64,000 nt of DNA from Patescibacteria group bacterium (GCA_038065395.1 JBBTRB010000003.1:19851-83850); one strand, 5' to 3'. Positions 38,164 to 57,037 are shown, counted from the stretch's first letter. Notes: generated from the letters alone by a model not told the origin. Numbers and translations are program-made.

Positions 38164-38177
38164 CCTCGACTATTGTT

Positions 38178-38351
38178 AGTTGCTACTATCCGTCGAGCCA
38201 CCTAGGTTGATCTCGAGTCCCCCCTTATCTTCCCCTTCTTCTTTGCCCATGAAGAATCCTTGCGTATACGCGATCCATACCACGATCGCGATGACGACGA
38301 TCACGAGAATGCCCACCACCATACCTGTACCCGAAGATTCGTTATTCATAT
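38178..38351 (-). CDS. hypothetical 57-aa single-TM peptide
   Basis: MNNESSGTGMVVGILVIVVIAIVVWIAYTQGFF...; below the ORF-track cutoff. Confidence 0.25.
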
Positions 38352-38410: not shown

Positions 38411-38431
38411 GGGTGCCTAATGGGATTCGAA
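38411..38431. repeat. 21-bp direct repeat of the tRNA-His 3' end (distal att site of the integrated element)
   Basis: gggtgcctaatgggattcgaa is identical to 56965-56985 inside tRNA-His. Confidence 0.8.
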
Positions 38432-38673
38432 GCTTACAGCTTCAGTACACCTTTCGCATTTTCTTCCCTTCTTCGCTAAAGCTTCGAAGTGTCGAAAATA
38501 TGCTCAAGGTCTTCGAATCCCATCCGCAAGGTGCGCAGGCACCTTGCTTAGTCACCCCTACGCAAAAATTCCCACGCGGGAATTTTGCTACGGGGTCGCG
38601 TGGTCGCGCAGGTTAGGACAATATTCGAGAAAATTGATGACGCGACGATCTACATTCCAAGCTTCAAAGATTG

Positions 38674-38712
38674 TTACCCCACACCTGCTCTCACTATATC
38701 TAAAAAATAATC
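38674..38712. repeat. promoter-like 39-nt motif, copy at left end of the island
   Basis: ttaccccacacctgctctcactatatctaaaaaataatc; 38/39 identical to 45677-45715. Confidence 0.5.
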
Positions 38713-38727
38713 TGACTCCCAAAATTG

Positions 38728-39921
38728 TTACAGATCACTTTCAAATTTATCCCTAATTACCTGAAAGCTGCTCATTTCTGTCTGAGACACAGCTTCGCCA
38801 CGAGGAAAATCTGTAGTTAGAGGATTAATAGGTGACCCGTTTTCAAACATGGCATATTGAAGATGGGGACCGGTAGAAATCCCTGTTGATCCTACATATC
38901 CGATCACGTCACCTTGCTCAACCGTTGCTCCGGTCTCTATGTCTTTGGCAATCTTTGAAAGATGAGCATACTGAGTAAGGTAGTTCCCATGTTTAACTTC
39001 AACTGTAATACCCAGACCTCCCTTTGATCCTGCAACGGTCACCTTACCGTCTGCTGTAGCAATAACAGGTGTACCGGAATCAGCTGCATAATCTATTGCA
39101 CGATGCGGAGTAACCTGTTTAGTAACTGGATTGGTACGCTTGTAACTAAATCCTGAGCTTATACGAGCATAATTAAGTGGTGATTTGAGAAACTGGCGAG
39201 CAAGAGACTTTCCTTCTGAGTCATAAAATTTATCATTGAAACGAAAAGCTGTGTATGTTTTGTCGCCGTTTGTGAATTTTGCAGCCAGTATTCTTCCAGC
39301 TCCTGCATCCTTGCCGTCAAGAGTTCGCTTTTCATAGACAACAGAAAAAGAATCCCCTTCGCGTATGTCGGTTGCGAAATCAATATCGCTTGAAAAGACA
39401 TCTGCAATTCCCATGGTTGCCTTGTCTTCGAGCCCTACAGACTGTGCCGCTAAAAATAGAGAGTCGGTGATCGTTCCTCTGGCTGTCGCATTCTCAATCA
39501 CATAAGGGATTTCTTCCTCCGTAGCAACGAAGGCATCTTCCTGCTTTTTTACATGAACCACCGTATCGCTATTTAATGGATACTCCATCGCTGCGAACGC
39601 TTCTTGAACAAATACGAGCTTAAGGACCTTCCCGGCGTTCATTTTTGTAAAATCAAAAACATCCTTCGAGGAGCTAAGGATGGAGTACGCTTGCTCATAG
39701 GGAACATTCATACCAGTCATTACCTCGGCGAAGGTATCTCCTGGTTCAATTTTATACTCTTTCACAATACCCTCAGGTAGATCACTTTGAGGCAACAATT
39801 GAAGCGCCTCACCTTGCTTTGATACTGCTTTTACATTATCCGATGCTCCAATTTTGATGCTAACGAGGGGGATGGTCGCAACAACAGCGAGCCCAAATCC
39901 CCACAGGGCAAATTTCTTCAT
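38728..39921 (-). CDS. M23 family (LytM-like) peptidoglycan endopeptidase
   Basis: HxxxD and HLQYAMFENG (HxH) M23 motifs; N-terminal signal/TM. Confidence 0.8.
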   Translation of the reverse strand: MKKFALWGFGLAVVATIPLVSIKIGASDNVKAVSKQGEALQLLPQSDLPEGIVKEYKIEPGDTFAEVMTGMNVPYEQAYSILSSSKDVFDFTKMNAGKVLKLVFVQEAFAAMEYPLNSDTVVHVKKQEDAFVATEEEIPYVIENATARGTITDSLFLAAQSVGLEDKATMGIADVFSSDIDFATDIREGDSFSVVYEKRTLDGKDAGAGRILAAKFTNGDKTYTAFRFNDKFYDSEGKSLARQFLKSPLNYARISSGFSYKRTNPVTKQVTPHRAIDYAADSGTPVIATADGKVTVAGSKGGLGITVEVKHGNYLTQYAHLSKIAKDIETGATVEQGDVIGYVGSTGISTGPHLQYAMFENGSPINPLTTDFPRGEAVSQTEMSSFQVIRDKFESDL

Positions 39922-39978
39922 AGGCTGTATATTGTAGCGAAAAAAGAAGAGCTTTTCAAGCTCCTAAAAGCCCTTATT

Positions 39979-41916
39979 TTATGAGGTTTTAAACAATCTT
40001 AGTCCGTTAAGTATCACCAGAATCGCCACTCCAGTATCGGCAGCAATGGCAATGCCGAGATTCGATATACCAAAGATGGCAAGGACGATGAAAGCGAGCT
40101 TGGAAATGAGCGCTGCAGTCACGTTCTGCTTTACGGTACGAAGCGCCTTTTTCGAAAGCCCCACAGCGTATGGGATGTTCAGAATATTGTCATTCATGAG
40201 AGCAATGTCAGCCGTTTCAATTGCCACGTCCGATCCCTTTGCTCCCATGGCAATACCGACATTTGAAAGTGCCAAAGAGGGGGCATCATTGACTCCGTCC
40301 CCGACCATCGCCACCGATCCGTATTTGTCTTTGAGCATCTGAATCTTCTTCACCTTTTCATCAGGAAGAAGTGACCCGTGCGCCTCCTTGATGCCGAGAG
40401 TTTCAGCAACGTATGAAGCAGTGTGCTGATTGTCTCCGGTAAGCATGATGGAAGTCACTCCCATTGCGGTAAGTTTCTCAATAGTCTGCTTAGCTTCATC
40501 TTTTATCCTGTCCGAGATAGCAAGAGCGCCCATGATTTTGTCACCTTCACTTACAAGAACCACCGTTTTACCTTCACGCTCGAGTTTCTCTGTCTTTTCA
40601 AGAATCTCCTTAGTCGTGACTCCATGGGCATCCATGAGCTTTAAATTGCCAACACAGTGTTCGAGATCATCACAGACCATGCAGGTTGCTTTACCTCCCT
40701 TACCAGCAATGTTCTGGTAATCCTGCATAGAGTGAGGATTGATCCCTTTTTCCTTTGCGTAGGCAAGGATGCTTTTCGAGAGCGGATGTGAAGAAAATTG
40801 CTCAACGCCGGCAGCGTCTTCAAGTACATCTTTCTCCGTGAAGCCATTAAAAGCGATCACATCAGATATGTAGGGTTCTCCGAGAGTGAGCGTGCCGGTC
40901 TTGTCGAACGCAACAGCTCTGACGTTCTTGAGCTCCTCAAGGTGTTTACCTCCCTTGATGAGTACACCTCGATGCGACGCTCCGCCGATTGCCGATGTGA
41001 TGGCTACAGGAGTGGAAATGACAAGAGCGCATGGACATGCGATGACGAGAAGCGTGATCGCCCTCTCAAGCCATATTACAAAAGGTTCACCAGTTATGAG
41101 AGGCAGCGCAGCAGCAACGATGAGAGCGATTAGAACGACCGACGGCGTATAGTATTTCGCAAAACGATCAATGAATTCCTGTGTAGGGGCCTTTGCCTTC
41201 TGTGCCTGTTCGACAAGGGCTATGATTTTTGAAAAAGTAGAGTTCTTGCTTTCCTTGGTTACCTCTATTTCTAAATATCCATTTTCATTGAGAGTTCCCG
41301 CAAAGACAGTATCGCCCTCTCGCTTGTCCTTGGGAATGGATTCGCCAGTGATAGTTGCCTCATTTACTGCTGATAGGCCTTTGATGACTTTGCCATCGAG
41401 TGGAATGAGTTCTCCAGGCTTTACCTGCACCTTTTGACCGACGATCACTTCACTTACTGGAATAGTCTTTCCATCAAGAAGCGTTGCTGTTTGTGGCGAC
41501 TTATGAAGAAGCGCTTGAAGCGCCCTTCGGGACCTGTCTATACCATAGTCCTCGAAGGCTTCCGCAAGAGAGAAGAAGAAAATGACAGCCGCTGCTTCCG
41601 GAAGTTCTCCGAGATATATCGCTCCGAGCGAAGCGATGACAACTAGGAAGTCGATATTGAGAAATTTCTGTTTTGAGAGTCCCCGCCACGCTCCTTTGAT
41701 GACGTAGATGCCCCCTGAAGCAATGGCGAGGGAGTAGATCGCTGTCACTGTCTCTGGATTGAATCCGAAGAGATTGAGAAAAAAGCCTGTAACAACGGAA
41801 ATCCCCGCAACCCAAGTAAGGAGTTTTTTCCAATTCACACTCAATGACGAAACCGCAGACTTATCTGTCTCGGGTTCGCAATGGTCACATGTGTTGTTTT
41901 GGATTTTGCTTGACAT
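39979..41916 (-). CDS. heavy-metal translocating P1B-type ATPase
   Basis: N-terminal CDHCEP metal site, TM CPC (IACPCALVISTP), DKTGTLT, SSHPLSK (HP), GDGVNDAP. Confidence 0.9.
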   Translation of the reverse strand: MSSKIQNNTCDHCEPETDKSAVSSLSVNWKKLLTWVAGISVVTGFFLNLFGFNPETVTAIYSLAIASGGIYVIKGAWRGLSKQKFLNIDFLVVIASLGAIYLGELPEAAAVIFFFSLAEAFEDYGIDRSRRALQALLHKSPQTATLLDGKTIPVSEVIVGQKVQVKPGELIPLDGKVIKGLSAVNEATITGESIPKDKREGDTVFAGTLNENGYLEIEVTKESKNSTFSKIIALVEQAQKAKAPTQEFIDRFAKYYTPSVVLIALIVAAALPLITGEPFVIWLERAITLLVIACPCALVISTPVAITSAIGGASHRGVLIKGGKHLEELKNVRAVAFDKTGTLTLGEPYISDVIAFNGFTEKDVLEDAAGVEQFSSHPLSKSILAYAKEKGINPHSMQDYQNIAGKGGKATCMVCDDLEHCVGNLKLMDAHGVTTKEILEKTEKLEREGKTVVLVSEGDKIMGALAISDRIKDEAKQTIEKLTAMGVTSIMLTGDNQHTASYVAETLGIKEAHGSLLPDEKVKKIQMLKDKYGSVAMVGDGVNDAPSLALSNVGIAMGAKGSDVAIETADIALMNDNILNIPYAVGLSKKALRTVKQNVTAALISKLAFIVLAIFGISNLGIAIAADTGVAILVILNGLRLFKTS

Positions 41917-41919
41917 TGA

Positions 41920-42117
41920 TTATTTGTTACCGCTCTTGCTCTTTGCGGCAGCCTTTAACTCTTTCCAAAAAGCTTTGTGTATCGACATTGTATCCTTCAG
42001 ATGTTTGCTGACCAACTTCTTAACGTCGGTTTTCGCGTCAGTGAATACCTCTTTGTGAATACGTACCTCTTCGTTGGCGTGATCTTTTAAAGATTTCAAT
42101 ATTTTTTGTATGTTCAT
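41920..42117 (-). CDS. hypothetical small Lys-rich protein
   Basis: 65 aa. Confidence 0.3.
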   Translation of the reverse strand: MNIQKILKSLKDHANEEVRIHKEVFTDAKTDVKKLVSKHLKDTMSIHKAFWKELKAAAKSKSGNK

Positions 42118-42131
42118 AGATTTAAATTAGG

Positions 42132-42788
42132 TTAATAGTTGACGTAATATTTTATCTTGGCATTTGCAGTCAAATCAGACACCCACTGTTGCGCTTCAGA
42201 CTGGAATTTCTGCTGTTTGAGCTGATCGCTGATCTGCTTTCTGAAATCCTCCATCTTCACGTCTTTTGGAAGAGTGGCTTTCGAGTCTTTGATGTATGCG
42301 TCTATCTCCGCTTCGCTCACAGCTACCTTTTCTGCTAGCAATTTTTCAAGCTTCTTTTGGATAGTGATCTGCTCTCGAAGTTTTTCCTCGGTCAAACCCT
42401 GTTGCGCAAGTGCCATTTCAAGTGTTCCGCCTTGAGATGTAACTTGAGTTTTTATCTTCTCAATTTCCGCATCAACTTCTTCTTTTGAGACATCTATTTT
42501 CTGCTTGTTTAATTCGGTCTCGATAAGTTTTTTATCGATGATCGCTTCGAGAGCCTGCTTGCCACCTTGCTTCTCAAGTTCTTTGATAACTGAAAGACGG
42601 CTGATAGGACTTCCATTTACCGTCGCAGCCACAAAGAGTCCTTTGGCAAAGATCAGGGCAATGATGATAAGAAGTACCGCTACTCCAATTGCAATATAGA
42701 GCGGCTTGGGCTTCTTGAATTTCAAATTGACGTAGCTTGCTTTAGGATCATCTTGAACATTTTTGTTTTCTGGTGTTGTATTTTCCAT
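42132..42788 (-). CDS. SurA N-terminal domain-like periplasmic chaperone, membrane-anchored
   Basis: TM anchor followed by a coiled helical domain resembling SurA_N/PrsA. Confidence 0.45.
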   Translation of the reverse strand: MENTTPENKNVQDDPKASYVNLKFKKPKPLYIAIGVAVLLIIIALIFAKGLFVAATVNGSPISRLSVIKELEKQGGKQALEAIIDKKLIETELNKQKIDVSKEEVDAEIEKIKTQVTSQGGTLEMALAQQGLTEEKLREQITIQKKLEKLLAEKVAVSEAEIDAYIKDSKATLPKDVKMEDFRKQISDQLKQQKFQSEAQQWVSDLTANAKIKYYVNY

Positions 42789-42801
42789 ATATATTTAATG
42801 A

Positions 42802-43458
42802 TTAATTATTTTTTGCCTTCTCGATAAGGAGCTTAAATGACTCGTATCCTTTCGGATTTTCTATCTTTTTTCCATCGAGGAAGAATGATGGGGTACCTTG
42901 GAGATTGAGACTGACTGCTTCCTTGTAGCTGTCATCGACTCGCTTCATGACCTCATCGCTTTTTACATCAGTTTTCCATTGCTCAATATTCATCACACCT
43001 GCTTCAATTGCATACTTTTCAAACTGATCTTGGTTTGCGACCGGCTTTTCGCTCCATTCTGACTGCTTGGTAAAGAGGATGCTGTACATCTCCCAGAACT
43101 TACCTTGCTTTCCGGCTGCTTCAACTGCATGCGCTGCTGTTCGGGAATTCTTATGTCCTGGCAACGGAAAGTATCGAACGACTAATCGCATATCGTCTTT
43201 GTATTCCTCTTTAAGCTTGGTAACTATTGGATAGAATGCTCCGCAAGCTTCACATTCGAAGTCGAGGTATTCAACAAGTGTTACCTTTGCGGTGCTCGTC
43301 CCAGAAACCCAATCATTTGCTTTGATCTCAAGTGCCGAAGCTTGACCGGTGTTTGTAGGTTCTACTTTATCTTCCGTCTTCTTGTAGCCTCCTTTCGCCA
43401 GAAGAAAGACGACGACAATCACGACGACGATTCCAATAATGATTTTAAGATTTTTCAT
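42802..43458 (-). CDS. DsbA-like thiol:disulfide oxidoreductase
   Basis: DFECEACGAF CxxC motif in a thioredoxin fold. Confidence 0.75.
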   Translation of the reverse strand: MKNLKIIIGIVVVIVVVFLLAKGGYKKTEDKVEPTNTGQASALEIKANDWVSGTSTAKVTLVEYLDFECEACGAFYPIVTKLKEEYKDDMRLVVRYFPLPGHKNSRTAAHAVEAAGKQGKFWEMYSILFTKQSEWSEKPVANQDQFEKYAIEAGVMNIEQWKTDVKSDEVMKRVDDSYKEAVSLNLQGTPSFFLDGKKIENPKGYESFKLLIEKAKNN

Positions 43459-43903
43459 AGGTATTTTTCTTTAAGCTGATAAATGCAAGCAGGTTAATAA
43501 TAATGAACGCCACCAATGCCATGAATGGAATGGTAATGAAGCCGAACCATTCAAAGAACTTGGTAGTGCATGATACTCCGAGCATGCATGGCGCAATGCT
43601 TTCGGGGAGAATCTTCCAATAAAGCAGGTTGTGGTAAATCGATATTAGAAGACCTGGAAGTGCGAGAGCAAGGACCGAGATGTAGGTCTTTCGGTCATTT
43701 CGAATAATACCTATCGCAACGAGAATCACTATCGGGTACATGGCGATGCGCTGATACCAGCATAATACACATGGTGGCAAGTTCATCACTTCACTGAAGA
43801 AGAGGCTTCCAGCCATGGCGATTCCTGCCTGAAGCAGGATGGCGTAGTGAAGTGTTTCGACTGATATTTTATTGATTAATTTTTTCATAATTTTAATTCT
43901 CAA
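43445..43903 (-). CDS. disulfide bond formation protein B (DsbB/BdbC family)
   Basis: PPCVLCWYQRIAMYP motif; 4 TM segments. Confidence 0.7.
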   Translation of the reverse strand: MRIKIMKKLINKISVETLHYAILLQAGIAMAGSLFFSEVMNLPPCVLCWYQRIAMYPIVILVAIGIIRNDRKTYISVLALALPGLLISIYHNLLYWKILPESIAPCMLGVSCTTKFFEWFGFITIPFMALVAFIIINLLAFISLKKNTYEKS

Positions 43904-44438
43904 CTTTACATACTTGAGGATCGATAATCTTTTTGGCGATCATGTAGACTGCGACTGCAAGCAGGATTGCTCCGATGATTCCAAACTCGCTGCCTCCGAG
44001 CGGTAGAAGCGTTAATATTCCTCCTGCGCCCACAAGCGTAAGGGTTGTGAGGAGAAATGACCCGCAGGCGGCACACCCCACTCCCAAGACTCCGCTTGCG
44101 ATACCAAGAAATCCAGTCGCAACACCTGTTTGTCCGACTTCCCTGATTCTGCGCTTCAGGAAGTAGGTGATCATTGCGATGTACATTCCAAATAGAATAG
44201 CAATCGCAATCGTGTAGGTAGCGGAGAGCGGTGTGAAGTTTGTTCCTATCGAACCCAGGAGACTGAGTGGCAATTGAATCTTACTTACGAAAGGTACATC
44301 CGATGAACTGACTACGCCCGCAACCAGTCGGATATTTGGAAGCCAAACAGCAAGCACAAATACCGACGCACTTACGACAAGTGCAATAACCACATAGGCA
44401 GGTTTGCGGAATACTTTTTGTAAAGCATCAAGAATCAT
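43893..44438 (-). CDS. hypothetical polytopic membrane protein
   Basis: Start chosen at MILDALQKV, abutting the upstream stop; contains GVGCAACGS. Confidence 0.4.
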   Translation of the reverse strand: MILDALQKVFRKPAYVVIALVVSASVFVLAVWLPNIRLVAGVVSSSDVPFVSKIQLPLSLLGSIGTNFTPLSATYTIAIAILFGMYIAMITYFLKRRIREVGQTGVATGFLGIASGVLGVGCAACGSFLLTTLTLVGAGGILTLLPLGGSEFGIIGAILLAVAVYMIAKKIIDPQVCKVEN

Positions 44439-44440
44439 AA

Positions 44441-45172
44441 TTATTTTGATGCAAGATCGATCAATTGCTTTATTGCAGAGATTGGCTGAGCTCCTGAAAG
44501 CGGATACTTCTTGCCATCTTTGCCGACCACAATGCTCCATGGTGTGCCATTGCCACCGGTTGCTTGAGCATTTTCAACTTCATCTTGAATATGCTTATCG
44601 TACTTCGTACTCGTGAGACAAGTGTTGAATTTTGCTGTGTCTAACCCTACGAACTGCGCAATCTTCGGAAGCTCTGCGGGATCGAGTCCATTGTTTGCAG
44701 GTGTGACCTCATAGAGGCGATCCGCAAATTCCCAAAACTTGTCGTTTCCTCCCAACTCGTTGGCGCATTCCATGGCGACAGCTTCCTTCCGGGCCTTAGA
44801 ATGAAGCTGATCGATTGGAAAGTGTCGGTATACCCATGCAACCTTTCCGTCTTTGCCGTAGGTATCCATCACATCATTCATCGTGTCTTGGAATCTCTTG
44901 CAGAATGGACATTCGGTGTCCGAGTATTCGACTATCTTCACTGGTGCGTTTATATCACCTCGAATGTGATCTTTTGATGTGACTGGTGCCATCTGCTCAA
45001 GATCACCCGTTTGCTGTGCCACTTGCTGTTGTTGTGGCTGATTTGCAGTACCTGATGCTGGTGCTTTGCCACCGCTGTAAATTACTGCGCCGGCAATGAG
45101 GGCTCCAGCAATAACTACAGCTATGGGCATTGCCAGCGTATTTTTTTGTATTGTTTCTTTGTTTTCTTCCAT
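44441..45172 (-). CDS. DsbA-like thioredoxin-fold protein
   Basis: DTECPFCKRF CxxC motif. Confidence 0.65.
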   Translation of the reverse strand: MEENKETIQKNTLAMPIAVVIAGALIAGAVIYSGGKAPASGTANQPQQQQVAQQTGDLEQMAPVTSKDHIRGDINAPVKIVEYSDTECPFCKRFQDTMNDVMDTYGKDGKVAWVYRHFPIDQLHSKARKEAVAMECANELGGNDKFWEFADRLYEVTPANNGLDPAELPKIAQFVGLDTAKFNTCLTSTKYDKHIQDEVENAQATGGNGTPWSIVVGKDGKKYPLSGAQPISAIKQLIDLASK

Positions 45173-45236
45173 AGCGACATAAAGTTAATAGTAAAAGCCG
45201 CAGTCCGAAAAACTGACGGCCAGCATTTCTTTGCCA

Positions 45237-45677
45237 CTAGAAAAGTTTAGGGTTTAAAATACCGCTTGAGAAAGCTTCCTTTAGAGGATTCGGGATGGAA
45301 ATCCTGTTTTTTAGGAAAAAGTTTCTGTATAAATTTGAAAGAGGCGGATTGGATGTATAAAAGATTTCACGCACGCCAAGCAATGCAAGCAGAGCGAGTA
45401 GAGAAAAGACGAGAGAAAGTGCTTCCTTTGCCGGAAGGACAGTAAACATATTTTGCCATGCCTGAATGTGCTCCATTGGCGACATTTTACAGATAGAGCT
45501 ATGGCCCGGCATGAACGGACAGTTAATAGGCTTTGGTCCGTAGTGTCCCGCCATTGCAAAATGGGATATTCCAAAAAGAAGAGTGACTAGAGTAAGCCCG
45601 ATGATAGCAAAGGTTAGAATTTTGAGGATTTTTGATCGCACGGTGTTAATTATATATTTTTGTTGGCCAATCGTCAT
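45237..45677 (-). CDS. hypothetical membrane protein
   Basis: 146 aa; the start codon lies inside the 39-nt motif. Confidence 0.4.
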   Translation of the reverse strand: MTIGQQKYIINTVRSKILKILTFAIIGLTLVTLLFGISHFAMAGHYGPKPINCPFMPGHSSICKMSPMEHIQAWQNMFTVLPAKEALSLVFSLLALLALLGVREIFYTSNPPLSNLYRNFFLKNRISIPNPLKEAFSSGILNPKLF

Positions 45678-46090
45678 TACCCCACACCTGCGCTCACTAT
45701 ATCTAAAAAATAATCCTGAACCCCCATTTTACCTGTAAATGCAGGTGTTCACCATTTTCCACCCTTTTTAAATGGGGGTTGACCACCGTTTTTTCACCGT
45801 TTTTAAACGGTGGTTACCCCCACTCTCACTCGCTATCTCGCTCAAAAAGTAGTTCCCGTTAATTTCCCGTTATTACGGGAACTTGGAAAGGCCTACCCCA
45901 CAGTCTCATTCACTATTTCGAGCTACTTCACCGATGACCGTAATCACCGTAATTTTGGACCGGACCAACTCACCTGTTATTCTCCTGTTCTATCAGGTGA
46001 GTACCCGCTAATTCACCGCTAATAAGGGTAGGAGAAACAGGTGCTTATCAGGAGTTATCAGGCTGCAAGGTTTTACCGTAAATCACAGCT
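45677..46090. repeat. non-coding array: three promoter-like motifs, each followed by duplicated 8-10 nt iterons and hairpins
   Basis: Motif copies at 45677, 45826 and 45893. Iteron pairs caccgttttt x2, cccgtta x2, accgtaat x2, cctgttat x2, ccgctaat x2, ttatcagg x2, several with adjacent inverted copies. Confidence 0.5.
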
Positions 46091-46095
46091 TGCGA

Positions 46096-46617
46096 TTATT
46101 TCACCCCACCTTGCTCCGCACTATTTCCAAGAACCTCTTTAACTTTCTGTGCGAGGTCACTCGGATCGAAGCGTCCATGATTGCCCAATCTCAAGAGCGG
46201 CACACCGGCTGATTTGAGAATACGCTCGACTTCATGGTCCCGATCTTGTCTGTCGGAACGCTCATGCGTTTGGTCATCAAGCTCAATGGCGAGCTTCGGA
46301 GCGATGTACGCCCGGTCGCAGAGCACGAAATCTACCGACTTACCGTTGATGTGGCTGAACGCACCGCGCCAGTTCTGGCCGGTTACCTTATGGTCAACGA
46401 TGGTTGGGAGATGCACTTGGGCGAAAATCAGATAGTCCTTGCCGACAGTCTGGACCAAAGCGTCATGGCACTCATGCTCTGCCCGGGAGAGGAAGAAAGG
46501 CTTTCGTTTGTAGAGGTAGCCTTTGGGACCAATTGGACCAGTGCCACCTTTTCTAAAAAACTCAATGAGTGCGATAGCTGCGATAATTATGACTAATAAA
46601 ATAATAAGTTTTGTCAT
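46096..46617 (-). CDS. DUF2726 domain protein
   Basis: FLSRAEHECHDAL...VDFVLCD...LAIELDDQTHE...RDHEVERIL matches the DUF2726 pattern. Confidence 0.6.
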   Translation of the reverse strand: MTKLIILLVIIIAAIALIEFFRKGGTGPIGPKGYLYKRKPFFLSRAEHECHDALVQTVGKDYLIFAQVHLPTIVDHKVTGQNWRGAFSHINGKSVDFVLCDRAYIAPKLAIELDDQTHERSDRQDRDHEVERILKSAGVPLLRLGNHGRFDPSDLAQKVKEVLGNSAEQGGVK

Positions 46618-46621
46618 TGGT

Positions 46622-46960
46622 TTATTTTTGAATCTGCTCGTAGTCCTCTTTGTTCCCGATCATGCGTATGTAGCCGTCAGTACCATCTACAGAAATAGCG
46701 CCGCATGCACATGGAGTCATTTTCTTATGCGTATTCCAGTAAATCTCTGTGCCACACTTTTTACACCTGATGTATGCCTCTTTCTTATTTTTCTTGTTGT
46801 AAGCATCAAACTCGTCTTTGGTGATTGGCCGATAGACTTTATCCATGATCGTCAAAAGTGCCGTCGCCTCGTCCATAGCGGTTTGATCATCGATATCCTG
46901 ACCGGGATTCTCTTTACGCCAGATTGCTTTGTATTCTTCTAGTGCTTGTTTTGAAATCAT
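46622..46960 (-). CDS. hypothetical zinc-ribbon protein
   Basis: CKKCGTEIYW...CACGAIS; start chosen at MISKQ. Confidence 0.35.
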   Translation of the reverse strand: MISKQALEEYKAIWRKENPGQDIDDQTAMDEATALLTIMDKVYRPITKDEFDAYNKKNKKEAYIRCKKCGTEIYWNTHKKMTPCACGAISVDGTDGYIRMIGNKEDYEQIQK

Positions 46961-47056
46961 ATAATTTGGGGTTAGTTTGGTTATTCCTCGAATACTTGCC
47001 GAAAAGCGTACACGAGGGCAAACAGGTGGCAAGAAGGCCTAAGATAAAGGGGTGGT

Positions 47057-47491
47057 TTAACTCTGAAACTCTACCTCAAACGGATACATGCCCATTCCGC
47101 ATGAACCTTGAAGCGTGCCGAGTTTTCCTTCGCCAATATCAATATCCGTTGCTCCTGACTGCGGTAAAGACTTGCTTATATTCAAGCTCGGAATACGAAC
47201 TGATGACGAGCAGTCGAAGGTTCCTTTTGTGTTGAATCGAATGATTGTTGGAATGCCTGCCTTGGCAATACTCTTTCGTGGCTGATATCCGCCTTTAGCA
47301 CTTATCTCTATAATTTGTTTTCCATCAACAATGGTGACATTGTTTGCATTTGCTACCTGTCCGGCATTACCACCACTTCGGGTGAGTATAAAAGCTCCCC
47401 CAATGAGGACCACTGCCACGATAACTGAAATAATAGTTGCTTTCATAAGGACAATTATACTAGAAGTTAAACACTGGCGGTATGACTCCAA
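47057..47491 (-). CDS. membrane-anchored cupredoxin-like protein (putative)
   Basis: TM anchor then a beta-rich domain ending GSCGMGMYPFEVEF (Cys/Met ligand-like). Confidence 0.4.
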   Translation of the reverse strand: MESYRQCLTSSIIVLMKATIISVIVAVVLIGGAFILTRSGGNAGQVANANNVTIVDGKQIIEISAKGGYQPRKSIAKAGIPTIIRFNTKGTFDCSSSVRIPSLNISKSLPQSGATDIDIGEGKLGTLQGSCGMGMYPFEVEFQS

Positions 47492-48479
47492 TTACTACCA
47501 GGCTATTAATAAGATTAAAGAGTGCGAACATGATGACGATCAGTCCTGCAGTCTTGAAGAACACTCCGGCCTTGGAACTCTTTTGAATGCTGAATGAACT
47601 GAAGCTAATAAGGGCAAGGACCGGTAAAGTTCCGAGTGCAAATGCAAGCATGGTAAGTCCACCACTGAGGAAACTCCCCGTTGTTAGGGTGTATAGCTGC
47701 ATTGACTGAGTGAATCCACATGGTAGGAAGAATGTTGCCACACCTACAAGAAACGGAGTGAGAGTATGGTTGAACTTTGAAACCCCGTGTGCATGCTTAG
47801 CAATAAACTTTGGCATTGATGGCTGAAGTTTCTTGGCCCAATGGAAGGTATCAAGAAGATTGATACCGAGGATAAGCATTACGATGCCAATGATTAGACT
47901 CAAGATAAATGTAGCTGAGGTGTTCAGAGTAAAGGCTGAACCAATAGCACCAATTACTCCACCGAGAATAAAGAACGCTACTATTCGGCCACCATGGAAC
48001 ATGAGCTGAGGACGTATCTTGTCACCTTCTTTAGCAAACGTTGCGGACATTGATAGGACCAGGCCACCAACAACCGCCATACAGGTTGAAAGCGAAGCGA
48101 TTATACCGATCACAAATGCTGTGCCGTAGGTCACATTACCTACACTAACAAGATTCACGATTCCCATTTTCTGTAGCACTACGAAGAGTACAGCAAAGCC
48201 CAGTGCTATCGGGACCGCAATTTTGAAGTCTCCCCATTTAGCTATATGCTGCTTTTTTTCAACTGAAACAGTGTAGCCATGAGGCCTCAGCGGTATTGTA
48301 AGATCCTCCGCAATCTGCACTTCCGTCTTATCACCGAACTCTCCGGTGACTTCTACTGAATGCTTTTTAAGACTCGATTTAACATGAGTGATATTAGGCA
48401 GATCGCCAAGCTCGCTCTCGGTCATGAGAACACAAGCGTTGCAGTGCATGCCGTGTACGTGAAAGGTTAATGTTTTCAT
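47460..48479 (-). CDS. HMA domain fused to DsbD_2/UreH-like transmembrane domain (putative metal transporter)
   Basis: N-terminal GMHCNACV (HMA MxCxxC), then about 6 TM segments with FFLPCGF. Confidence 0.6.
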   Translation of the reverse strand: MKTLTFHVHGMHCNACVLMTESELGDLPNITHVKSSLKKHSVEVTGEFGDKTEVQIAEDLTIPLRPHGYTVSVEKKQHIAKWGDFKIAVPIALGFAVLFVVLQKMGIVNLVSVGNVTYGTAFVIGIIASLSTCMAVVGGLVLSMSATFAKEGDKIRPQLMFHGGRIVAFFILGGVIGAIGSAFTLNTSATFILSLIIGIVMLILGINLLDTFHWAKKLQPSMPKFIAKHAHGVSKFNHTLTPFLVGVATFFLPCGFTQSMQLYTLTTGSFLSGGLTMLAFALGTLPVLALISFSSFSIQKSSKAGVFFKTAGLIVIMFALFNLINSLVVIGVIPPVFNF

Positions 48480-48501
48480 GATTTGATAATATTTCTCAGG
48501 A

Positions 48502-48723
48502 TTATATAACCTCTCCTTTTTTCTCAAGCATCATGTGATGGATGGTTGCAATCTGAAGCCATGTTGCGATGAGGATAAGAATTGCCGAACATGCTAATGC
48601 ATCCATTTTTGTAATTCCGAACACTAGATTGTCACCACCACCGATGAGTGTCCCCACAAATGCGATTACTCCAATAAAACCCGTGATAACACTTCCTACA
48701 TGCATTACTTTTGATAGTTTCAT
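48502..48723 (-). CDS. hypothetical small membrane protein
   Basis: 73 aa with 2 TM segments. Confidence 0.3.
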   Translation of the reverse strand: MKLSKVMHVGSVITGFIGVIAFVGTLIGGGDNLVFGITKMDALACSAILILIATWLQIATIHHMMLEKKGEVI

Positions 48724-48753
48724 ATATTTTTATGTTTAATTATTTTAATAAGT

Positions 48754-49362
48754 TTATTTATACCAAGTTGCGTACCAGCCCTGCATTTGCTGAATCTCTT
48801 TTGCCTGGGAGCTAATAATGTTTTTTGCTAGCTGCTGCATTTCGGACTGATTGCTTCCAGGTTCAAGCATGTTCGCCATCATGATTGCCATTTGATGATG
48901 TGGAATCATCTGCTCTATGAATGCCTTATCGAAGTCTTGTGCATTTCTAAGAGCAGTAAGGTCTTCTGACCCACCCATGTGCATACCACCTTGCGACATC
49001 ATTCCGCCCATCATCGCACTACCTTTTGGCACATCTTTTCCAAACCAGTTCTTATACCAGCTTTTCATCTGCTGATTCTCAGATTCTTGTGCGCCTATAA
49101 TCGCCTGAGCCAATGCTTTTATTTCAGGTCGCTTTGCTTTTTCTAAAGCAAGATTAGCCATAGCGATTGCCCCTTCGTGGTGAGGAATCATCTGTTCGAT
49201 AAAGTGCTTATCAAGCGCATTTGCAGTTACAGCATTATTGGTTGAATCTTGAACAGTATTTGTGACAGTCGAGCCGCCACGCATCATTGGGCTGATAAAC
49301 ATCCCAAGAATGAGACCGACCACAATTCCTCCTATAACGAATCCAATTTTATTATTGTTCAT
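48754..49362 (-). CDS. DUF305 domain protein (copper-resistance associated)
   Basis: Duplicated MIPHHEGAI / MIPHHQMAI motifs. Confidence 0.7.
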   Translation of the reverse strand: MNNNKIGFVIGGIVVGLILGMFISPMMRGGSTVTNTVQDSTNNAVTANALDKHFIEQMIPHHEGAIAMANLALEKAKRPEIKALAQAIIGAQESENQQMKSWYKNWFGKDVPKGSAMMGGMMSQGGMHMGGSEDLTALRNAQDFDKAFIEQMIPHHQMAIMMANMLEPGSNQSEMQQLAKNIISSQAKEIQQMQGWYATWYK

Positions 49363-49386
49363 ATATTTTTATAGTTAAGTTAATAG

Positions 49387-49587
49387 TTACTCTCCGGCAT
49401 ACTTCACAGGATCGGCTGTAAAGTGATTCTTGCAGTGGATAGCGCAAAAGTAGTAGGTTTTACCTTTGTAGTCTGCAGTTGCCTTAATGCTGTCTGCATC
49501 AAGCTCCATGCCGCAGACGAGATCGAAAGCCACGTCTGGGTCAGCAGGGTTATGGTTTTTATTATGTTTGTGATTTTTTGTTTGCAT
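49387..49587 (-). CDS. YHS domain protein
   Basis: LVCGMELD...YKGKTYYFCAIHCKNHF. Confidence 0.7.
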   Translation of the reverse strand: MQTKNHKHNKNHNPADPDVAFDLVCGMELDADSIKATADYKGKTYYFCAIHCKNHFTADPVKYAGE

Positions 49588-50021
49588 AGATTTTTAAGAT
49601 TAGAAATAGTAATAGAAGCTCTATGCAACGAAGGACTGTTTTCAAATAACGAAAGCCAACGGGTAATTTTCCGAGGACGACTGAGCTGGCGTTCCGGATC
49701 ATGCCGGACTCGCCAAGATACCAGATTGGTTAAAAGTAAACCCCGATGTTTTATATAGATAAATCCTACGCTTAGAAATAGGGCCAAGAGTAATGCAAGG
49801 AGAAAAATAAACGGAATTGACGGGACCACGCTGAAGAATGAAATGAATGCCTGGATGTGATGGACCGACATCGCCGCAATGTTTTCCGGACATGGAGTAT
49901 TGTCTACGGATGATGCAATACAACCTGTGGAGTGACCAATTCCATGATTCATTGAGGTAAAGCCAAACACCCCTATTACTAGGACACTTGTGATTATTAG
50001 TAATGAGAGGAGTTTTTTCAT
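49404..50021 (-). CDS. hypothetical membrane protein
   Basis: N-terminal ~110 aa hydrophobic with His pairs. The C-terminal part overlaps the YHS gene out of frame and is probably not real. Confidence 0.3.
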   Translation of the reverse strand: MKKLLSLLIITSVLVIGVFGFTSMNHGIGHSTGCIASSVDNTPCPENIAAMSVHHIQAFISFFSVVPSIPFIFLLALLLALFLSVGFIYIKHRGLLLTNLVSWRVRHDPERQLSRPRKITRWLSLFENSPSLHRASITISNLKNLCKQKITNIIKTITLLTQTWLSISSAAWSLMQTALRQLQTTKVKPTTFALSTARITLQPIL

Positions 50022-52348
50022 TATAGTTTTTTAGCTTTAATGCGAAGCGAGTTCGACACGACTGACACTGACGACATGGCCATAGCAAATCCTGCAAAGA
50101 CTGGATTCAAGAGCCATCCGAAAACCGGATACAAAGCTCCTGCTGCAAGCGGTATTCCTACAATGTTATAGATAAAGGCCCAGAAGAGATTCTGCTTGAT
50201 GCCACGCATAGTGATCTTTGAAAGCTTGATTGCTTTCACAAGCTTTGAAATATCTCCACCAAGAAGCGTGATGCCAGCCGATTCGATCGCCACATCTGTT
50301 CCAGTCCCCATGGCGATACCCACATCTGCCTGAGCGAGTGCAGGAGCATCGTTTACGCCATCACCAGCCATAGCAACCACTCGACCTTGTGACTGTAGTT
50401 CTTGAATCTTTTTCAGCTTATCTTCTGGAAGCACATGAGCGACTACGTCATCGATTCCCACTAGAGAAGCAATATATTTAGCTGCCTTTTCATCATCTCC
50501 GGTAAGCATGACTACTTTGATTCCGAGAGCATGGAGATTTTTTACTGCCTCGACCGACTCTGCTTTTATTTCATCAGCTACCATAACAAAACCGAGAACC
50601 TTCTCTTTGGTAGAAAGAATGACTGGCGTTTTACCCTGGGAAGTGAACTCGTTAAGTTTTGCGGTATCAAAGGAAACCTTAAGATCGCTTACGAGCTTAG
50701 CGTTGCCTACAAAGTATTCAGTACCTTTAACTATTCCCTTGAGACCCTTGCCTTGTATACCCTCGAAATTTGAAATGTCTGATGTTGAAATGTTTTTCTC
50801 TTGGGCGTAATTTACAATCGCATGAGCAATTGGATGCTCTGATTTTTTCTCAAGTGAAGCGAGAATTGAAACAAGTTCATCGTCTTTTAAATCAGAAAGG
50901 TTTTGTATATCAACGAGTGTTGGCTTGCCCTTGGTAATGGTCCCTGTTTTATCAACCACAACTGTATTTACTTTATGGAGCTTTTCAAGTGTTGCTGCAT
51001 CTTTAATGAGAATGCCTTCTTTTGCACCTTTACCAACTCCAACGATAATTGCCGTGGGAGTGGCGAGACCAAGAGCACAGGGGCATGCAATGACTAAGAT
51101 TCCCACAAATGATACGAGGCCGAATGAGAGAGCTTGTGAAAAACCAAGATACTGTGAACCGATAATAAGCCATGCTCCCAGGGTCAGGAATGCGATTACC
51201 AAAACTATTGGCACAAAGATTGATGATATTTTGTCAGCGAGTGCTTGAATTGGAGCTTTACTGCCTTGGGCGTCTTCCACCATCTTTATGATCTGAGCCA
51301 GGAGAGTTTCGGACCCGACTTTTGTGGCTTTGAATGTGAATGACCCACTTGTGTTTATGGTTCCAGAAACAACACTGTCTCCAGTCTTCTTTTGTGCTGG
51401 CATCGGCTCTCCGGTAACCATAGATTCATCTACGAATGATGAGCCTTCAGTAATCACACCGTCTACAGGAATCTTTGCGCCTGGCTTAACGATAATGAGA
51501 TCGCCATGCTTTACGTCATTCACTGAAATCTCCATTTCTTTTCCGTCACGAATCACCAATGCTGTTTTGGCTTGGAGATTAAGGAGCTTTTCTATAGCAT
51601 CACCGGTCTTTATCTTTGATCGAGCTTCAAGATATTTACCGAGCGCGATAAAGGTGATAACCACGATCGTCACATCGTAGTATTGATACTCAACATTAAT
51701 AAAAGGCCGGAGAACGTCTTCAAATGCGGTGACTGCAAAGCTGTATAAAAAGGCGGCACTCGTTCCGATACCGATCAATGTATCCATGTTTGCCTTGCCG
51801 TATCGTAGGAACCTGTAAAAACCAAGGAGGTAAGGCTTACCAACTACAAAGAGTATATATGTTGCAAATATTGGAAGAAGATGGTGAAAAAACTCTTTGA
51901 TCGTATAGCTCATTTCTCCGACGACACCATATTGAGCAAGAATGTCCCATCCCATAACGATAGCCGCAAAAATTGCCAAAGGTATTGCCGAGATCACCTT
52001 TGTTCTCATATCAGCTACCTCGGCAAGTTTCTCTTTCTTTGACTGATTGAGTCCAAGGTGTGCAGCATGTTCATCTGCCGACATACCCATATCCTTAGCT
52101 GATTGATCACCATGCTCGTGTGACATCTCCTGGTCCAGAGCAAGAGAGTAACCAAGCGGTTCTATCTTCTTTGAAAGTTCTTGTGCGCTTATTTTTGATT
52201 CATCAAAAGCTACCTTTGCTTTTTCGGTCCCATAGTTTACTTCAGCAGAGTGAACTCCTTCGGTTTTCTTAAAGGTTTTCTCAATGATGCCAGCACAGGA
52301 GGCGCAATGCATTCCTTTTATTCTGTAAGTTTTGGTGGGATGATTCAT
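50021..52348 (-). CDS. copA: copper-translocating P1B-type ATPase
   Basis: [15 protein letters not shown] ([11 protein letters not shown]), [20 protein letters not shown]. Start chosen at [12 protein letters not shown]. Confidence 0.9.
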
Positions 52349-52352
52349 ATTT

Positions 52353-52619
52353 TTATTTACGCTTAAGCTTATAAACCTTAAGAATCTCATCGACCGCTTT
52401 CTTTTCGCTCCCATGCTTCATCTGATGAACAACGTGTGTAGAAAGGTGGTTTTCAAGAACTAGGTTCTCGATTCCTGTAAGCGCCTCCTTGATAGCGGAT
52501 GCTTGAGTAATAATGTCGATGCAATACTTCTCATCCTCAACCATTTTCTGGAGGCCCCTAATCTGTCCCTCAACAATTTTTAATCGACGAATAGCTTTTG
52601 TTTTGATATCTTGTCTCAT
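52353..52619 (-). CDS. csoR: CsoR/RcnR family metal-sensing transcriptional repressor
   Basis: [40 protein letters not shown] with the conserved Cys and His of DUF156. Confidence 0.8.
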
Positions 52620-52723
52620 ATACATACATAATACCCCCTAGGGGTATAGACTGTCAAATCAGTAAATGCAAACATTGGAAAAAAGGCGAATTCGTTGTAG
52701 ATTTGTAGCAAATTACTATTACC

Positions 52724-53365
52724 ATGACTCCAGCTGCCAAAATCAGGTTTGTGAAAAACCGAATTGAAGATCAGGTCGCCATAAGCCCGAAAGGGCCTAT
52801 TGTTCTGCCTGTGCATGATATTTTCACTAATTCTTTTACCTTTCTGGCCAAGGAGCAATATTTGATACTCAAAAAACTTCAGGAGGACGGCTACATAAAA
52901 GGCCTCTTTCCTCTTGAGAAAAAGGAGGTCTGGTTTGAAATGACCGGCAAGCCTCTCGATCCGTTCGGCCTCATCGCCATGAATGCTGCCAAAGGCAGGA
53001 AGCCCGCGCGAGTGGCTGTAAAAGATACTCTGCTCATGACCAAGGAGCTTGAGCCCGACTTCGAGGTGAGCGGTCTTGCCTCATATTCTGACGGGACCAT
53101 TCGCTACAAAGACACGATCGTCCCTCTCCGTGGCCAGATCAAGGATTTGTGCCGCCTGTTCATGCGCAATCCGAAACGGCTTATTACCCGCGAGGACATC
53201 AAGGAGAACATCATCGCCGCCGACAAGCGCAAATCTGTTCCGAAAATCACCATTTCCAAATATGTAAGCGAGCTTCGTAATTCATTGAGAGTTCATTTCA
53301 AGAAAGACGTGATCTACAGCCAGAAAGATGAGGGCTGGTACTTCGACCCGAGCAAAAAGAGCTAG
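52724..53365 (+). CDS. putative winged-helix (OmpR/CadC-type) DNA-binding regulator
   Basis: C-terminal LITREDIKENII...ISKYVSELRNSL...WYFDP resembles a trans_reg_C domain. Confidence 0.4.
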   Translation: MTPAAKIRFVKNRIEDQVAISPKGPIVLPVHDIFTNSFTFLAKEQYLILKKLQEDGYIKGLFPLEKKEVWFEMTGKPLDPFGLIAMNAAKGRKPARVAVKDTLLMTKELEPDFEVSGLASYSDGTIRYKDTIVPLRGQIKDLCRLFMRNPKRLITREDIKENIIAADKRKSVPKITISKYVSELRNSLRVHFKKDVIYSQKDEGWYFDPSKKS

Positions 53366-53466
53366 AAATCCGATTCATTTCTGAATATTGAATGAGCGCA
53401 CTCACCGAAACTGTGAGTGCGTTTTCATATTGAATACGCGCATTACTAATCTAGCGAAATTACTCT

Positions 53467-53739
53467 ATGACAAGAAAATTAAAGCCTCGGTCCCACCAGG
53501 ACGACGAGGCATCAGTGTTTACTACTTACGACCTTGGAGTATCGGCGGCACTCTTGTGCCTCGGGTACAAGCTAATACGCTTGGACCGCGACGATCCTCG
53601 CAAGGCCCTTTTCGTATTCAGGAAAGAAGCGGATATCGATACGTACGCCAATCAGTATTTTTCAGATCAGCTCAAAGTCAAAGCTCGGTCGTTCTTTGAC
53701 AGCATCAAGGCGTTGAAGAATAAGCTCTACTCCGAATAG
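53467..53739 (+). CDS. hypothetical protein
   Basis: 90 aa. Confidence 0.35.
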   Translation: MTRKLKPRSHQDDEASVFTTYDLGVSAALLCLGYKLIRLDRDDPRKALFVFRKEADIDTYANQYFSDQLKVKARSFFDSIKALKNKLYSE

Positions 53740-53741
53740 CT

Positions 53742-54008
53742 ATGCTGCTTTTGGACGTGGACATCAAAAAGTTCCAAGAGCTTTACAAGGCTCGCTTTGG
53801 AATGGACATAAGCAAAGAAGAAGCCTTAGCAAAAGGCACTCAGCTTGTGCGCCTGATGGAGCTCGTCTATAAGCCAATGTCTCAAGAAGAACACGAGCTC
53901 ATCCACAAGCGACGGCTCGAAACGCTTCCCTTACTAGCACATAAATTACAAAATCATGAATCAGAATCTAGAGTCACTTACAATCAAAGACGAGCTCGAC
54001 AAAATTAA
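53742..54008 (+). CDS. hypothetical protein
   Basis: 88 aa; overlaps the start of the next ORF. Confidence 0.3.
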   Translation: MLLLDVDIKKFQELYKARFGMDISKEEALAKGTQLVRLMELVYKPMSQEEHELIHKRRLETLPLLAHKLQNHESESRVTYNQRRARQN

Positions 54009-55317
54009 GGAACGCATTACCCCGCCTGAACCGATCACCCTTGATCAGGTCCGACATGTCCTGGACCTCACCATCAAAAAAGATGATGGAAATAAAATCA
54101 TCACGTTTCTTGCAATGCTTGCTGCATACACCGACAATGCGCAATTCAATATCAGTTTTAATGCTCCCTCATCGTCCGGCAAGAGCTTTATTCCTCTCGA
54201 GATCTCAAATCTCTTTCCACAGGAGGATGTTATGAAGCTCGCCGGGGCATCGCCCACATCATTTCTTCACGAGAGCGGTGTGTATAAAAAGGAAACGAAT
54301 GAGCGCTTTATCGACCTATCAAGGAAAATCATCATCTTCCTCGATATGCCGCATGCAACGCTTTTAACAAAGCTCCGATCTCTATTATCTCATGATGAGA
54401 AAGAGACGAGGCACAAGATTACGGATAAAACGGAGAAAGGCGGTACACGCACAAAGACCGCCGTCATCAGAGGCTTCCCGTCGGTCATATTCTGCTCGGC
54501 CAATGCCAAAATGGACCAGCAGGAAATGACCCGCTTTCTACTTCTCAGTCCTGAAATAAATCAGGAGAAGATACTTGCCGGAATCCACCAGTCCTCTCGC
54601 AAGGAATCCGACAAGAAGAAATATTATAAAGAGCTCAATGAGAATCCTCTGCGTAAAGCGCTAATCGAGCGCATAGCTTTAATCAAGGCTGCCGGTGTCG
54701 ACGAGATTATCATTGAGGACGAGAAAGGCGTTCAGCAAAGATTTCTCGCTCACATACAAAATCCGCAACCGAGAAATCAGCGAGACATTAAACGTATTTA
54801 CTCAATCATCAAATCAGTTGCTCTTTTGAATGTCTGGCATCGCAAGCGCCAAGGCACTACGCTCTACGCATCCGAACTAGACATCGATACCGGCTTTGAG
54901 ATTTGGGATAAGATATCGCTCTTTCAGGAGCTTGAAATATCGCCATACCTCTACGAATTCTATTCGCAGATTATTCTTCCTTTGTGGAATCGGGACCAGA
55001 TCGACGAGTTCGGTGATCCTGTGGCTGAAGAAAAGAAGATAGGCGTTACCCGTCAAGACATGCTCAAGCAATACGCCCACGTCTATGGCGGCAACCTTGG
55101 CATGTTCAGGCTTCGCTATGACTATCTGCCGAACATCGAATCGGCTGGCCTTATCTTCCAGGAACCTGATCCGAATGATCGTCGGCAACTCCTGACATAC
55201 CCAACTATCGCCGCTAAGAGGCTTGAGAAAACGGAGGAAATACATAGTGCGTACGAGCCGGGGGTAAATATTACCAACGTTGAAAATGAGATAAAAGCCG
55301 AGGACGTTCCGTTCTAA
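53956..55317 (+). CDS. P-loop NTPase, putative replication/mobilisation protein of the integrated element
   Basis: Walker A NAPSSSGKS; 453 aa. Confidence 0.5.
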   Translation: MNQNLESLTIKDELDKIKERITPPEPITLDQVRHVLDLTIKKDDGNKIITFLAMLAAYTDNAQFNISFNAPSSSGKSFIPLEISNLFPQEDVMKLAGASPTSFLHESGVYKKETNERFIDLSRKIIIFLDMPHATLLTKLRSLLSHDEKETRHKITDKTEKGGTRTKTAVIRGFPSVIFCSANAKMDQQEMTRFLLLSPEINQEKILAGIHQSSRKESDKKKYYKELNENPLRKALIERIALIKAAGVDEIIIEDEKGVQQRFLAHIQNPQPRNQRDIKRIYSIIKSVALLNVWHRKRQGTTLYASELDIDTGFEIWDKISLFQELEISPYLYEFYSQIILPLWNRDQIDEFGDPVAEEKKIGVTRQDMLKQYAHVYGGNLGMFRLRYDYLPNIESAGLIFQEPDPNDRRQLLTYPTIAAKRLEKTEEIHSAYEPGVNITNVENEIKAEDVPF

Positions 55318-55386
55318 GGGACTTGCAATTACCCCACGAAGAAGGTAACACAGCAACACCCCTTAGAATTAACATTACCCAATTAT

Positions 55387-56973: not shown

Positions 56974-57037
56974 TGGGATTCGAACCCATGCTGCGGCTTT
57001 CACAGAGCCGAGTGCTAACCATTACACCATAGGCACC
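56962..57037 (-). tRNA. tRNA-His (GTG) with encoded G-1 and CCA
   Basis: Manual fold: 8-bp acceptor stem with G-1:C73, anticodon loop CUGUGAA, T-loop TTCGAAT, 3' CCA encoded. Confidence 0.85.

Follow-up and report, generated by a model that had tools for sequence, protein, structure and literature searches.

The origin of SaPI and PICI elements lies 3' of rep, and in phage P4 the winged helix of the alpha protein binds ori and crr. The stoperators of mycobacteriophages L5 and Bxb1 are reportedly asymmetric sites of 13 bp that are scattered and bound by the repressor. In pRN1, the Rep protein comprises a primase and an SF3 helicase together with a winged helix, and the origin, a stem-loop, lies just 3' of rep (PMC4234260). 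Tycheposons, in the part of the tycheposon preprint drawn on here, integrate into tRNA genes by a site-specific integrase, which in a minority is a large serine recombinase, and combine a small primase/helicase module with variable cargo and relic tRNAs (bioRxiv 10.1101/2020.12.28.424599). The locus described here resembles tycheposon and PICI replicons at the level of the whole element, as far as that part of the source describes them, and its cis-acting array recalls partly iteron or stem-loop origins and partly stoperators. We rate the array as a control region, made up of repeated binding sites, of an integrative replicon. The element, putatively self-replicating, sits in the tRNA-His gene of a groundwater CPR bacterium, and the array is its control or junction region.

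The window, meaning the whole 64,000-nt stretch of Patescibacteria group bacterium DNA that was analyzed, carries an 18.4-kb integrated element in tRNA-His (38592-56973). An earlier sequence-only reading had assigned the array to an integrated element, and the island in tRNA-His bears this out; the tRNA-His integration itself and the link to the Rep and integrase genes had been missed. Its genes include those for a large serine integrase and for Rep, an MCM-like helicase with a winged helix, and its backbone DUF5659-orf88-Rep-integrase recurs with different cargo beside tRNA-His or tRNA-Asn in other CPR genomes. The cargo of the island (38717-45677 and 47057-52414) is a metal and disulfide-bond set comprising two P-type ATPases, a DsbD-like protein with an HMA domain, a cupredoxin, a DUF305 protein, two DsbA, DsbB, a CsoR-like repressor and an M23 peptidase. 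Related elements carry restriction-modification systems, a diversity-generating retroelement or a transposase. In one of them (L099, 5804-7234), a DGR (RVT_1 and bAvd) is found together with a restriction-modification system and a Transposase_mut (PF00872) transposase. Integration into a tRNA gene, a site-specific integrase, a small primase/helicase module, variable cargo and relic tRNAs are features that the element shares with tycheposons and PICI elements. Measured against that same part of the tycheposon preprint, which reports no motif array of the window's kind, it differs in its CPR host, its MCM-like helicase and an integrase ORF that spans attP and loses its tail on integration (bioRxiv 10.1101/2020.12.28.424599). 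Our literature searches found neither the element family nor its motif described.

The array lies in a 418-nt spacer (45678-46095) between the minus-strand DUF2726 gene (46096-46617) and a 146-aa membrane ORF (45237-45677). Its most prominent component is a bipartite, asymmetric motif of 26-27 nt with the consensus yACCCCAC-N9-CACTATWTC, of which there are five copies in the window. When three mismatches were allowed, the pattern TACCCCACANNNNCNNTCRCTATNTC matched four times in 64 kb against 0.01 expected: copy A (45678-45703), copy B (45815-45839, one nucleotide shorter; pattern match 45814-45839), copy C (45894-45919) and the distant copy S (38675-38700). Copy D (46102-46127) was found through co-occurrence of the half-motifs, as ACCCCAC precedes four of the five CACTATWTC sites in the window at a distance of 9 nt. 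All five are direct repeats in the same orientation, listed here as minus strand, and are 65-73% identical to one another; A to D are spaced by 136, 80 and 208 nt. The motif had been recognized before, in three copies; D and S had been overlooked, and the position given as 45826 falls inside copy B. Copy A had been proposed to overlap a start codon; the 146-aa ORF, however, has its ATG (45675-45677, minus strand) directly next to the copy, and the core is left free. On the plus strand copy A is followed by the AT-rich run TAAAAAATAATC (45704-45715). Copy B is the least conserved of the copies. Copy D overlaps the last DUF2726 codons and is retained in homologues in which another gene adjoins. 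About 43 nt of copy S and its flank match copy A. Copy S is found 12 nt beyond the M23 peptidase stop codon, and the end of the ORF that we identify below as the integrase tail overlaps with it.

The space from A to D is occupied by nine box modules. In each of them a unit stands twice in direct orientation at 9-12 nt and usually once more as an inverted copy; most modules amount to a small palindrome with a third copy of the left arm one helical turn upstream. In modules 1-3 (45720-45747, 45750-45778 and 45783-45813) the direct copies are about 10-11 nt apart and accompanied by an inverted one. Module 4 (45851-45883) reads AGTTCCCGTTAATTTCCCGTTATTACGGGAACT, with a core that is invariant in 20 arrays. 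Modules 5-9 (45936-46083) contain ACCGTAAT twice, a CCTG family with three plus-strand and three minus-strand copies, CCGCTAAT twice, TTATCAGG twice and TACCGTAAAT. The boxes belong to several sequence families (CACCGT-, CCCGT-, CCTG- and CCGCTAAT-type). Five exact 7-mers recur at 9-11 nt (CACCGTT at 45784, TTCCCGT at 45853, ACCGTAA at 45937, CCGCTAA at 46005 and TTATCAG at 46045), against 0.14 in dinucleotide shuffles (maximum three in 500). The tandem duplicates noted earlier are real in these five cases; the pair given as 'cctgttat x2' is imperfect (CCTGTTAT/CCTGTTCT). Among the repeat arrays of plasmid regulators and centromere-binding proteins, heptads of the omega protein stand in direct-direct-inverted order, and ParR and StbA bind direct repeats. 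The boxes are similar in that two direct and one inverted unit of 7-10 bp follow each other at about one helical turn, but differ in falling into several sequence families; among the element genes we recognized no ParA/ParM or ribbon-helix-helix gene.

The array is not a CRISPR, as had been stated: the motif copies are only 65-73% identical and the repeats are irregularly spaced, CRISPR-repeat matches in Rfam are at chance level and lie elsewhere in the window, and no cas gene is among the annotated island genes. The array had also been described as free of ORFs. A 70-aa ORF (45810-46022) does exist in the window and in some relatives and is what might favor a decayed gene. Its variable columns are spread over the codon positions without periodicity (34/32/38), however, and 1-nt indels or stops break it in six of ten homologues. 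By this pattern of variation the array region is non-coding.

Small structured RNAs, lying in a cluster, had been among the candidate roles, and we considered a single long non-coding RNA alongside them. Both strands of the array indeed fold significantly better than shuffles (z -4.3 and -5.0), and inverted copies forming hairpins are present as claimed. On the minus strand, a transcript that started at copy C would be terminated by module 4 and its U-run after about 70 nt, and a few base pairs are compensated, for example from A-T through G.T to G-C in module 3. Yet only 5-bp stem cores are conserved and the outer pairs are often broken; the RNAalifold covariation term is -0.21, with a double change in only five of 47 predicted pairs. 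The covariation analysis across homologous loci that had been suggested as a check therefore returned almost no RNA covariation, and a set of structured small RNAs is not supported by conserved 5-bp cores of this kind. Among the stem variants there are G.T as well as A.C intermediates, so no strand is favored and a strand-specific G.U signal is ruled out; the 'loop' positions are conserved as well as the stems. Rfam 15, searched to E 10, gave nothing better than E = 0.97 within 45500-46300 and hence no family for the array, and its gathering score was reached in the window by two tRNAs only. We therefore think it improbable that the array acts as structured RNA.

Homologous loci make clear what is conserved instead. 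When public genomes and metagenomes were scanned with the 26-nt motif pattern, as had been recommended, 20 and 60 loci were returned, respectively; by our estimate about nine of the 20 genome matches are expected by chance. The genome loci are mostly CPR/Patescibacteria MAGs, and the viral contigs scanned contained no match to the motif or to module 4. About 22 loci carry homologous arrays in which motif and module order are the same. We compared the window with L017, L025 and L042 by class of site. Identity was 0.88-0.89 in motif columns, 0.78-0.87 in box columns, 0.55-0.62 in linkers and 0.35-0.51 at four-fold degenerate sites of the adjacent DUF2726 gene. Motif and boxes thus lie far above the four-fold sites, which indicates purifying selection on both, while the linkers drift. 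The comparison shows, as a matter of aligned sequence, that motif and boxes are DNA-level sites under selection, and that the motif is a hallmark cis element of the element family. Because the sequence is conserved, including the loops, rather than the base pairing, protein-binding DNA fits better than structured RNA. What remains is a decayed gene, as raised from the outset, or a functionless chance cluster of repeats, and both are contradicted by the purifying selection and the absent codon periodicity: conservation of motif and boxes far exceeds that of neutral sites, and the repeats are far more numerous than in shuffles. We consider either very improbable indeed.

The position of the motif relative to the integrase gene points to its place in the element. 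The large serine recombinase (55387-56973, plus strand) comprises Resolvase, Recombinase and Zn_ribbon_recom domains and matches PHROG 'integrase' at 2e-67. Its stop codon lies inside the att core derived from the 3' end of tRNA-His, the integration target (attR; 56962-57036, minus strand). At the left end of the island, the attL core GGGGT (38592-38596) directly follows the tRNA-His terminator hairpin (38564-38586), and an ORF of 38 codons (38594-38710, plus strand; GRVVAQVRTIFEKIDDATIYIPSFKDCYPTPALTISKK and stop) begins there. These codons show synonymous variation between genomes. In L050 and P0127 they are in frame with the integrase ORF after ...(E/S)WGA, and in P0128-P0130 and many other loci unrelated sequence is joined to them at exactly the same point; integration therefore splits the integrase ORF, and the island extends from 38592 to 56973. 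The integrase ORF spans the attachment site, and integration swaps its last 38 codons for a stop codon derived from tRNA-His, so that the C-terminus of the integrase would differ between the integrated and the excised state. Two other interpretations of the 38-codon 'micro-ORF' were discarded: as an independent small protein or leader peptide it has no Pfam or NCBIfam match and is actually the integrase tail, and as a fragment of the Rep C-terminus it shows no HMM similarity to that region. A homologue search with the integrase C-terminus as query covered fragments only, with few candidates sharing words.

In about 20 independent contexts the motif comes 0-30 nt after the integrase tail. In L103 and L104, tail relics are left from which the motif has been lost, and these are uninformative on the motif. 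In a Melainabacteria-type context (L089, 7200-7500), two tandem units of tail and motif stand about 70 nt apart, which suggests serial insertions or a junction duplication. We rejected the motif as an att site or half-site of the serine integrase, because the junctions lie elsewhere (GGGGT at 38592 and the tRNA-His 3' end at 56964-56984) and the motif copies are direct and not inverted; the motif begins about 80 nt inside attL, and only one side is conserved. Left of the true attL, the tRNA-His 3' end (56964-56984) recurs without a change as a 21-nt fragment (38411-38431), which is followed at 38511-38543 by a copy of itself that is inverted and interrupted. These fragments are probably relics of earlier insertions, and the long hairpin that they form has no Rfam family match. 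Just outside the left end of the island lies a 57-aa ORF with a hydrophobic core (38176-38349, minus strand).

Motif copies also bracket cargo. The 7-kb block between S and A (38717-45677, minus strand) encodes an M23 peptidase, a P-type ATPase, a SurA-like protein, DsbA, DsbB, a second DsbA and the 146-aa ORF. L017, L025, L062 and L087 lack the block, and this first part of the cargo represents a separate insertion with the flanking repeat of about 43 nt. At the same position between motif copies, L033 carries a different block of 6.4 kb and L050 a GNAT gene, and in L074 (an 808-aa gene) and L076 single genes lie exactly between two copies. Such independent blocks would be accounted for if the copies were recombination seams or scars of modular exchange and the segments between them remnants of lost cargo cassettes, with exchange proceeding by homologous recombination at the shared 27-45-nt sequence or by a further site-specific system. 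Mosaicism is a further point in favor: in L019, a MAG labelled Nomurabacteria, the DUF2726 gene is 100% identical to that of the window and the array only 93-95%, which on sequence identity indicates recent transfer or mis-binning together with a recombination boundary near motif D. Segment order and boxes, however, are conserved and under selection across about 22 arrays, and scars would not be, which makes seams less likely. Moreover, the only recombinase of the element acts at the tRNA-His site and not at the motif, and the copies are all direct where an inverted pair would be expected for attL and attR. We see this origin of the copies as a rather improbable one.

In having gene blocks bracketed by direct conserved sites beside a recombinase gene, the locus is reminiscent of integron attC arrays and SCC islands. 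Unlike these, it lacks IntI and the R''/L''/L'/R' architecture, its motif forms no hairpin and lies upstream and not downstream of genes, and the att site of the serine integrase is elsewhere. An integron attC site was rejected on the same grounds: the sole recombinase is of the serine type, and the motif is non-palindromic and without RYYYAAC...GTTRRRY. The setting in a metal-resistance island led us to consider operators of CsoR- or OmpR-type metal regulators, and these were dismissed as homologous arrays occur with entirely different cargo. Beyond the DUF2726 gene lies a DUF7695 gene (46622-47032, minus strand), a type of gene that always adjoins motif D in related arrays. PADLOC returned nothing for DUF2726, DUF7695 or the 146-aa ORF, and a non-coding component of a defence system was rejected.

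Motif copies within one locus share one orientation, which is co-directional with the local genes. In 12 independent contexts the motif, read in the minus direction, has an ATG-started ORF of at least 100 aa beginning no more than 80 nt after it, versus four in the plus direction, a bias to be read as that of a small sample. Nine of the 12 start 0-38 nt after the motif, and the genes are unrelated cargo. Read in the direction of the genes, on the minus strand, the motif becomes GAWATAGTGAG-N-TGTGGGGTA (in copy A, GATATAGTGAGCGCAGGTGTGGGGTA). It then contains TATAGT or AATAGT with A at -11, T at -7 and G at -14, and a T-rich tract precedes it. Just before copy B, module 4 of the minus strand is followed by CTTTTTGAGC (45840-45849) and resembles an intrinsic terminator. 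We count the co-directional copies, the bias towards gene starts, the bracketed genes, a motif arm in the Rep gene that faces the next gene (see below), the -10-like hexamer and the terminator-like module in favor of a transcription signal.

What counts against a promoter is that 49 non-redundant motif contexts show no conserved -35 element, no T at -15 and nothing conserved outside the 27 nt, and that conservation runs about 15 nt beyond the -10-like hexamer. Copy B, in addition, often lacks the T at -7, and the host's own tRNA-His promoter differs in form (TGGTATAAAT). A simple promoter scan did not call the motif sites. Without a conserved -35 the motif is probably no ordinary sigma-70 promoter, and as a promoter it would need a factor of its own; a polar operator of the stoperator type is an equally good reading. 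The description of the motif as promoter-like is sensible on the minus strand only. On the plus strand CTCACTATA is a T7 look-alike, in which +1 is T or C and -13 to -17 is not AT-rich. A T7-type promoter or phage origin of this kind would be antisense to all genes, and no single-subunit RNA polymerase is among the annotated island genes; since the viral contigs scanned did not match the motif or module 4 either, both were rejected.

Our best reading, which we hold tentatively, is that the array consists of element-specific, transcription-polar promoter or operator sites. The motifs would act on the minus strand as direction-dependent transcription signals specific to the element, either as promoters without a -35 or as operator or 'stoperator'-type sites for a protein that the element encodes, and would start or gate leftward transcription into the cargo genes. 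The boxes may be operator palindromes or terminator-like hairpins that insulate the convergent transcription units of integrase and cargo. In the excised circle the array would directly follow the completed integrase gene and point against it, so that the motifs would be directed antisense into the 3' end of that gene. With stoperators the motif shares its asymmetry, its location in very short intergenic spaces and a single orientation relative to transcription; it differs in its two-part structure and its 27 bp, against 13 bp, and in forming a gene-free array of four copies with box modules.

The link between the motif and the Rep gene fits an origin equally well. Rep (453 aa; 53956-55317, plus strand) has no match in Pfam, nor among PDB chains when its sequence is searched. 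Its predicted structure (pLDDT 82.6) matches MCM helicases in a fold search and ends in a winged helix; we take it as a predicted MCM-like AAA+ helicase. Its relatives number at least 1980; they come mostly from CPR genomes and in most cases are fused to a Toprim primase. Within the aligned C-terminal regions (the last ~110 residues) conservation is highest in the winged helix. Most Rep genes contain the motif in their 3' end, where it forms an inverted repeat. An arm GAAATAGTGAG...GGTGGGGTA, read in the Rep direction, is present in all Rep genes examined, and several also have an inverted arm upstream or a second tandem arm. This universal arm points at the next gene, 13-115 nt upstream of it. 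Translated, the arms yield the peptides YPTxxLTIS...ENSExxGGV, found in 69 of 118 homologues. Comparison of L024 with L038 places the motif in different reading frames of Rep, and AlphaFold predicts the motif-encoded tail to be disordered (pLDDT <50, residues 425-448). Two reading frames and a disordered tail point to a constraint on DNA or RNA and not on protein. The Rep gene of the window itself contains only a degenerate arm (55242-55266), opposite in orientation to S and A-D, and a vestige of the other arm (55198-55214).

According to the origin hypothesis, the motif is the binding site of the Rep winged helix, as an iteron or a stem-loop arm, and the array is a replication origin or copy-control region. 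Helicase and primase would assemble at the array, which in the excised circle lies downstream of rep and the integrase gene, and the boxes would be auxiliary iterons. The embedded inverted repeats with their peptide signature and their differing frames argue for it, as do the helicase fold, the primase fusions of most relatives and a winged helix whose conservation would match that of a conserved DNA target. The precedent of the pRN1 stem-loop, just 3' of a rep gene of similar make-up (PMC4234260), and the density of short direct repeats at helical spacing in the array (TCACC occurs six times against 0.77 expected) are further points in its favor. As in pRN1, SaPI and P4, a repeated or inverted cis element stands at the 3' end of a winged-helix primase-helicase gene in an integrative, putatively self-replicating element with multiple short repeats. 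Unlike pRN1-type origins, the motif lies inside the coding tail of rep, where it is conserved across Reps that are only ~50% identical. It also occurs between cargo genes kilobases away from rep, in a fixed orientation that follows gene direction, and an AT-rich unwinding region is missing (G+C ~45%, longest AT run 12 nt). Further evidence against an origin comes from the arm in the window's own Rep gene, which is degenerate and does not match the canonical copies of its array, from the spacing of the motifs (80-210 nt, versus contiguous in classical iterons) and from the several different families of box sequences. We judge an origin possible, if doubtful. Promoter/operator and origin are not exclusive, as initiator proteins often regulate transcription too.

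Established origin classes were examined in the same way. Classical iterons (at least three near-identical repeats of 17-22 bp, contiguous or at ~22 bp) were rejected, as the motifs are 80-210 nt apart and the boxes only paired. The AT-rich element and DnaA boxes of iteron origins were likewise not found: AT runs do not exceed 12 nt at a G+C of ~0.45. For a chromosomal oriC, TTACCCCACA resembles the DnaA box TTATCCACA, but the region lies inside the island, and cumulative GC skew, which had been proposed as an origin check, has no turning point. An oriT, also suggested before, is without support, as no relaxase was found among the island genes. The earlier list of candidates had nevertheless named the right classes, a transcription-factor binding array and an iteron-type origin.

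A broader and more speculative view, which we think improbable as a whole, is that motif and boxes are the cis part of a new system of state-dependent control or capture in CPR mobile elements. Integration would take the 38 codons and the motif array away from the integrase gene; with array and tail removed, both the integrase C-terminus and any antisense or roadblock control would differ between the integrated and the excised state. The motif would at the same time be the seam for cargo cassettes, an integron-style platform without an integron integrase.

Mobile elements of CPR/Patescibacteria are almost uncharacterized. The motif is a compact sequence tag that, together with the Rep family, may help to locate such integrative replicons in metagenomes, and it marks where cargo for metal resistance, restriction and diversity generation is inserted. 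With its split ORF, the integrase would add to the examples of genes whose expression depends on the integration state. Should the array turn out to serve a native CPR replicon as its origin or promoter set, genetic tools, which are few in this group, would have a starting point.
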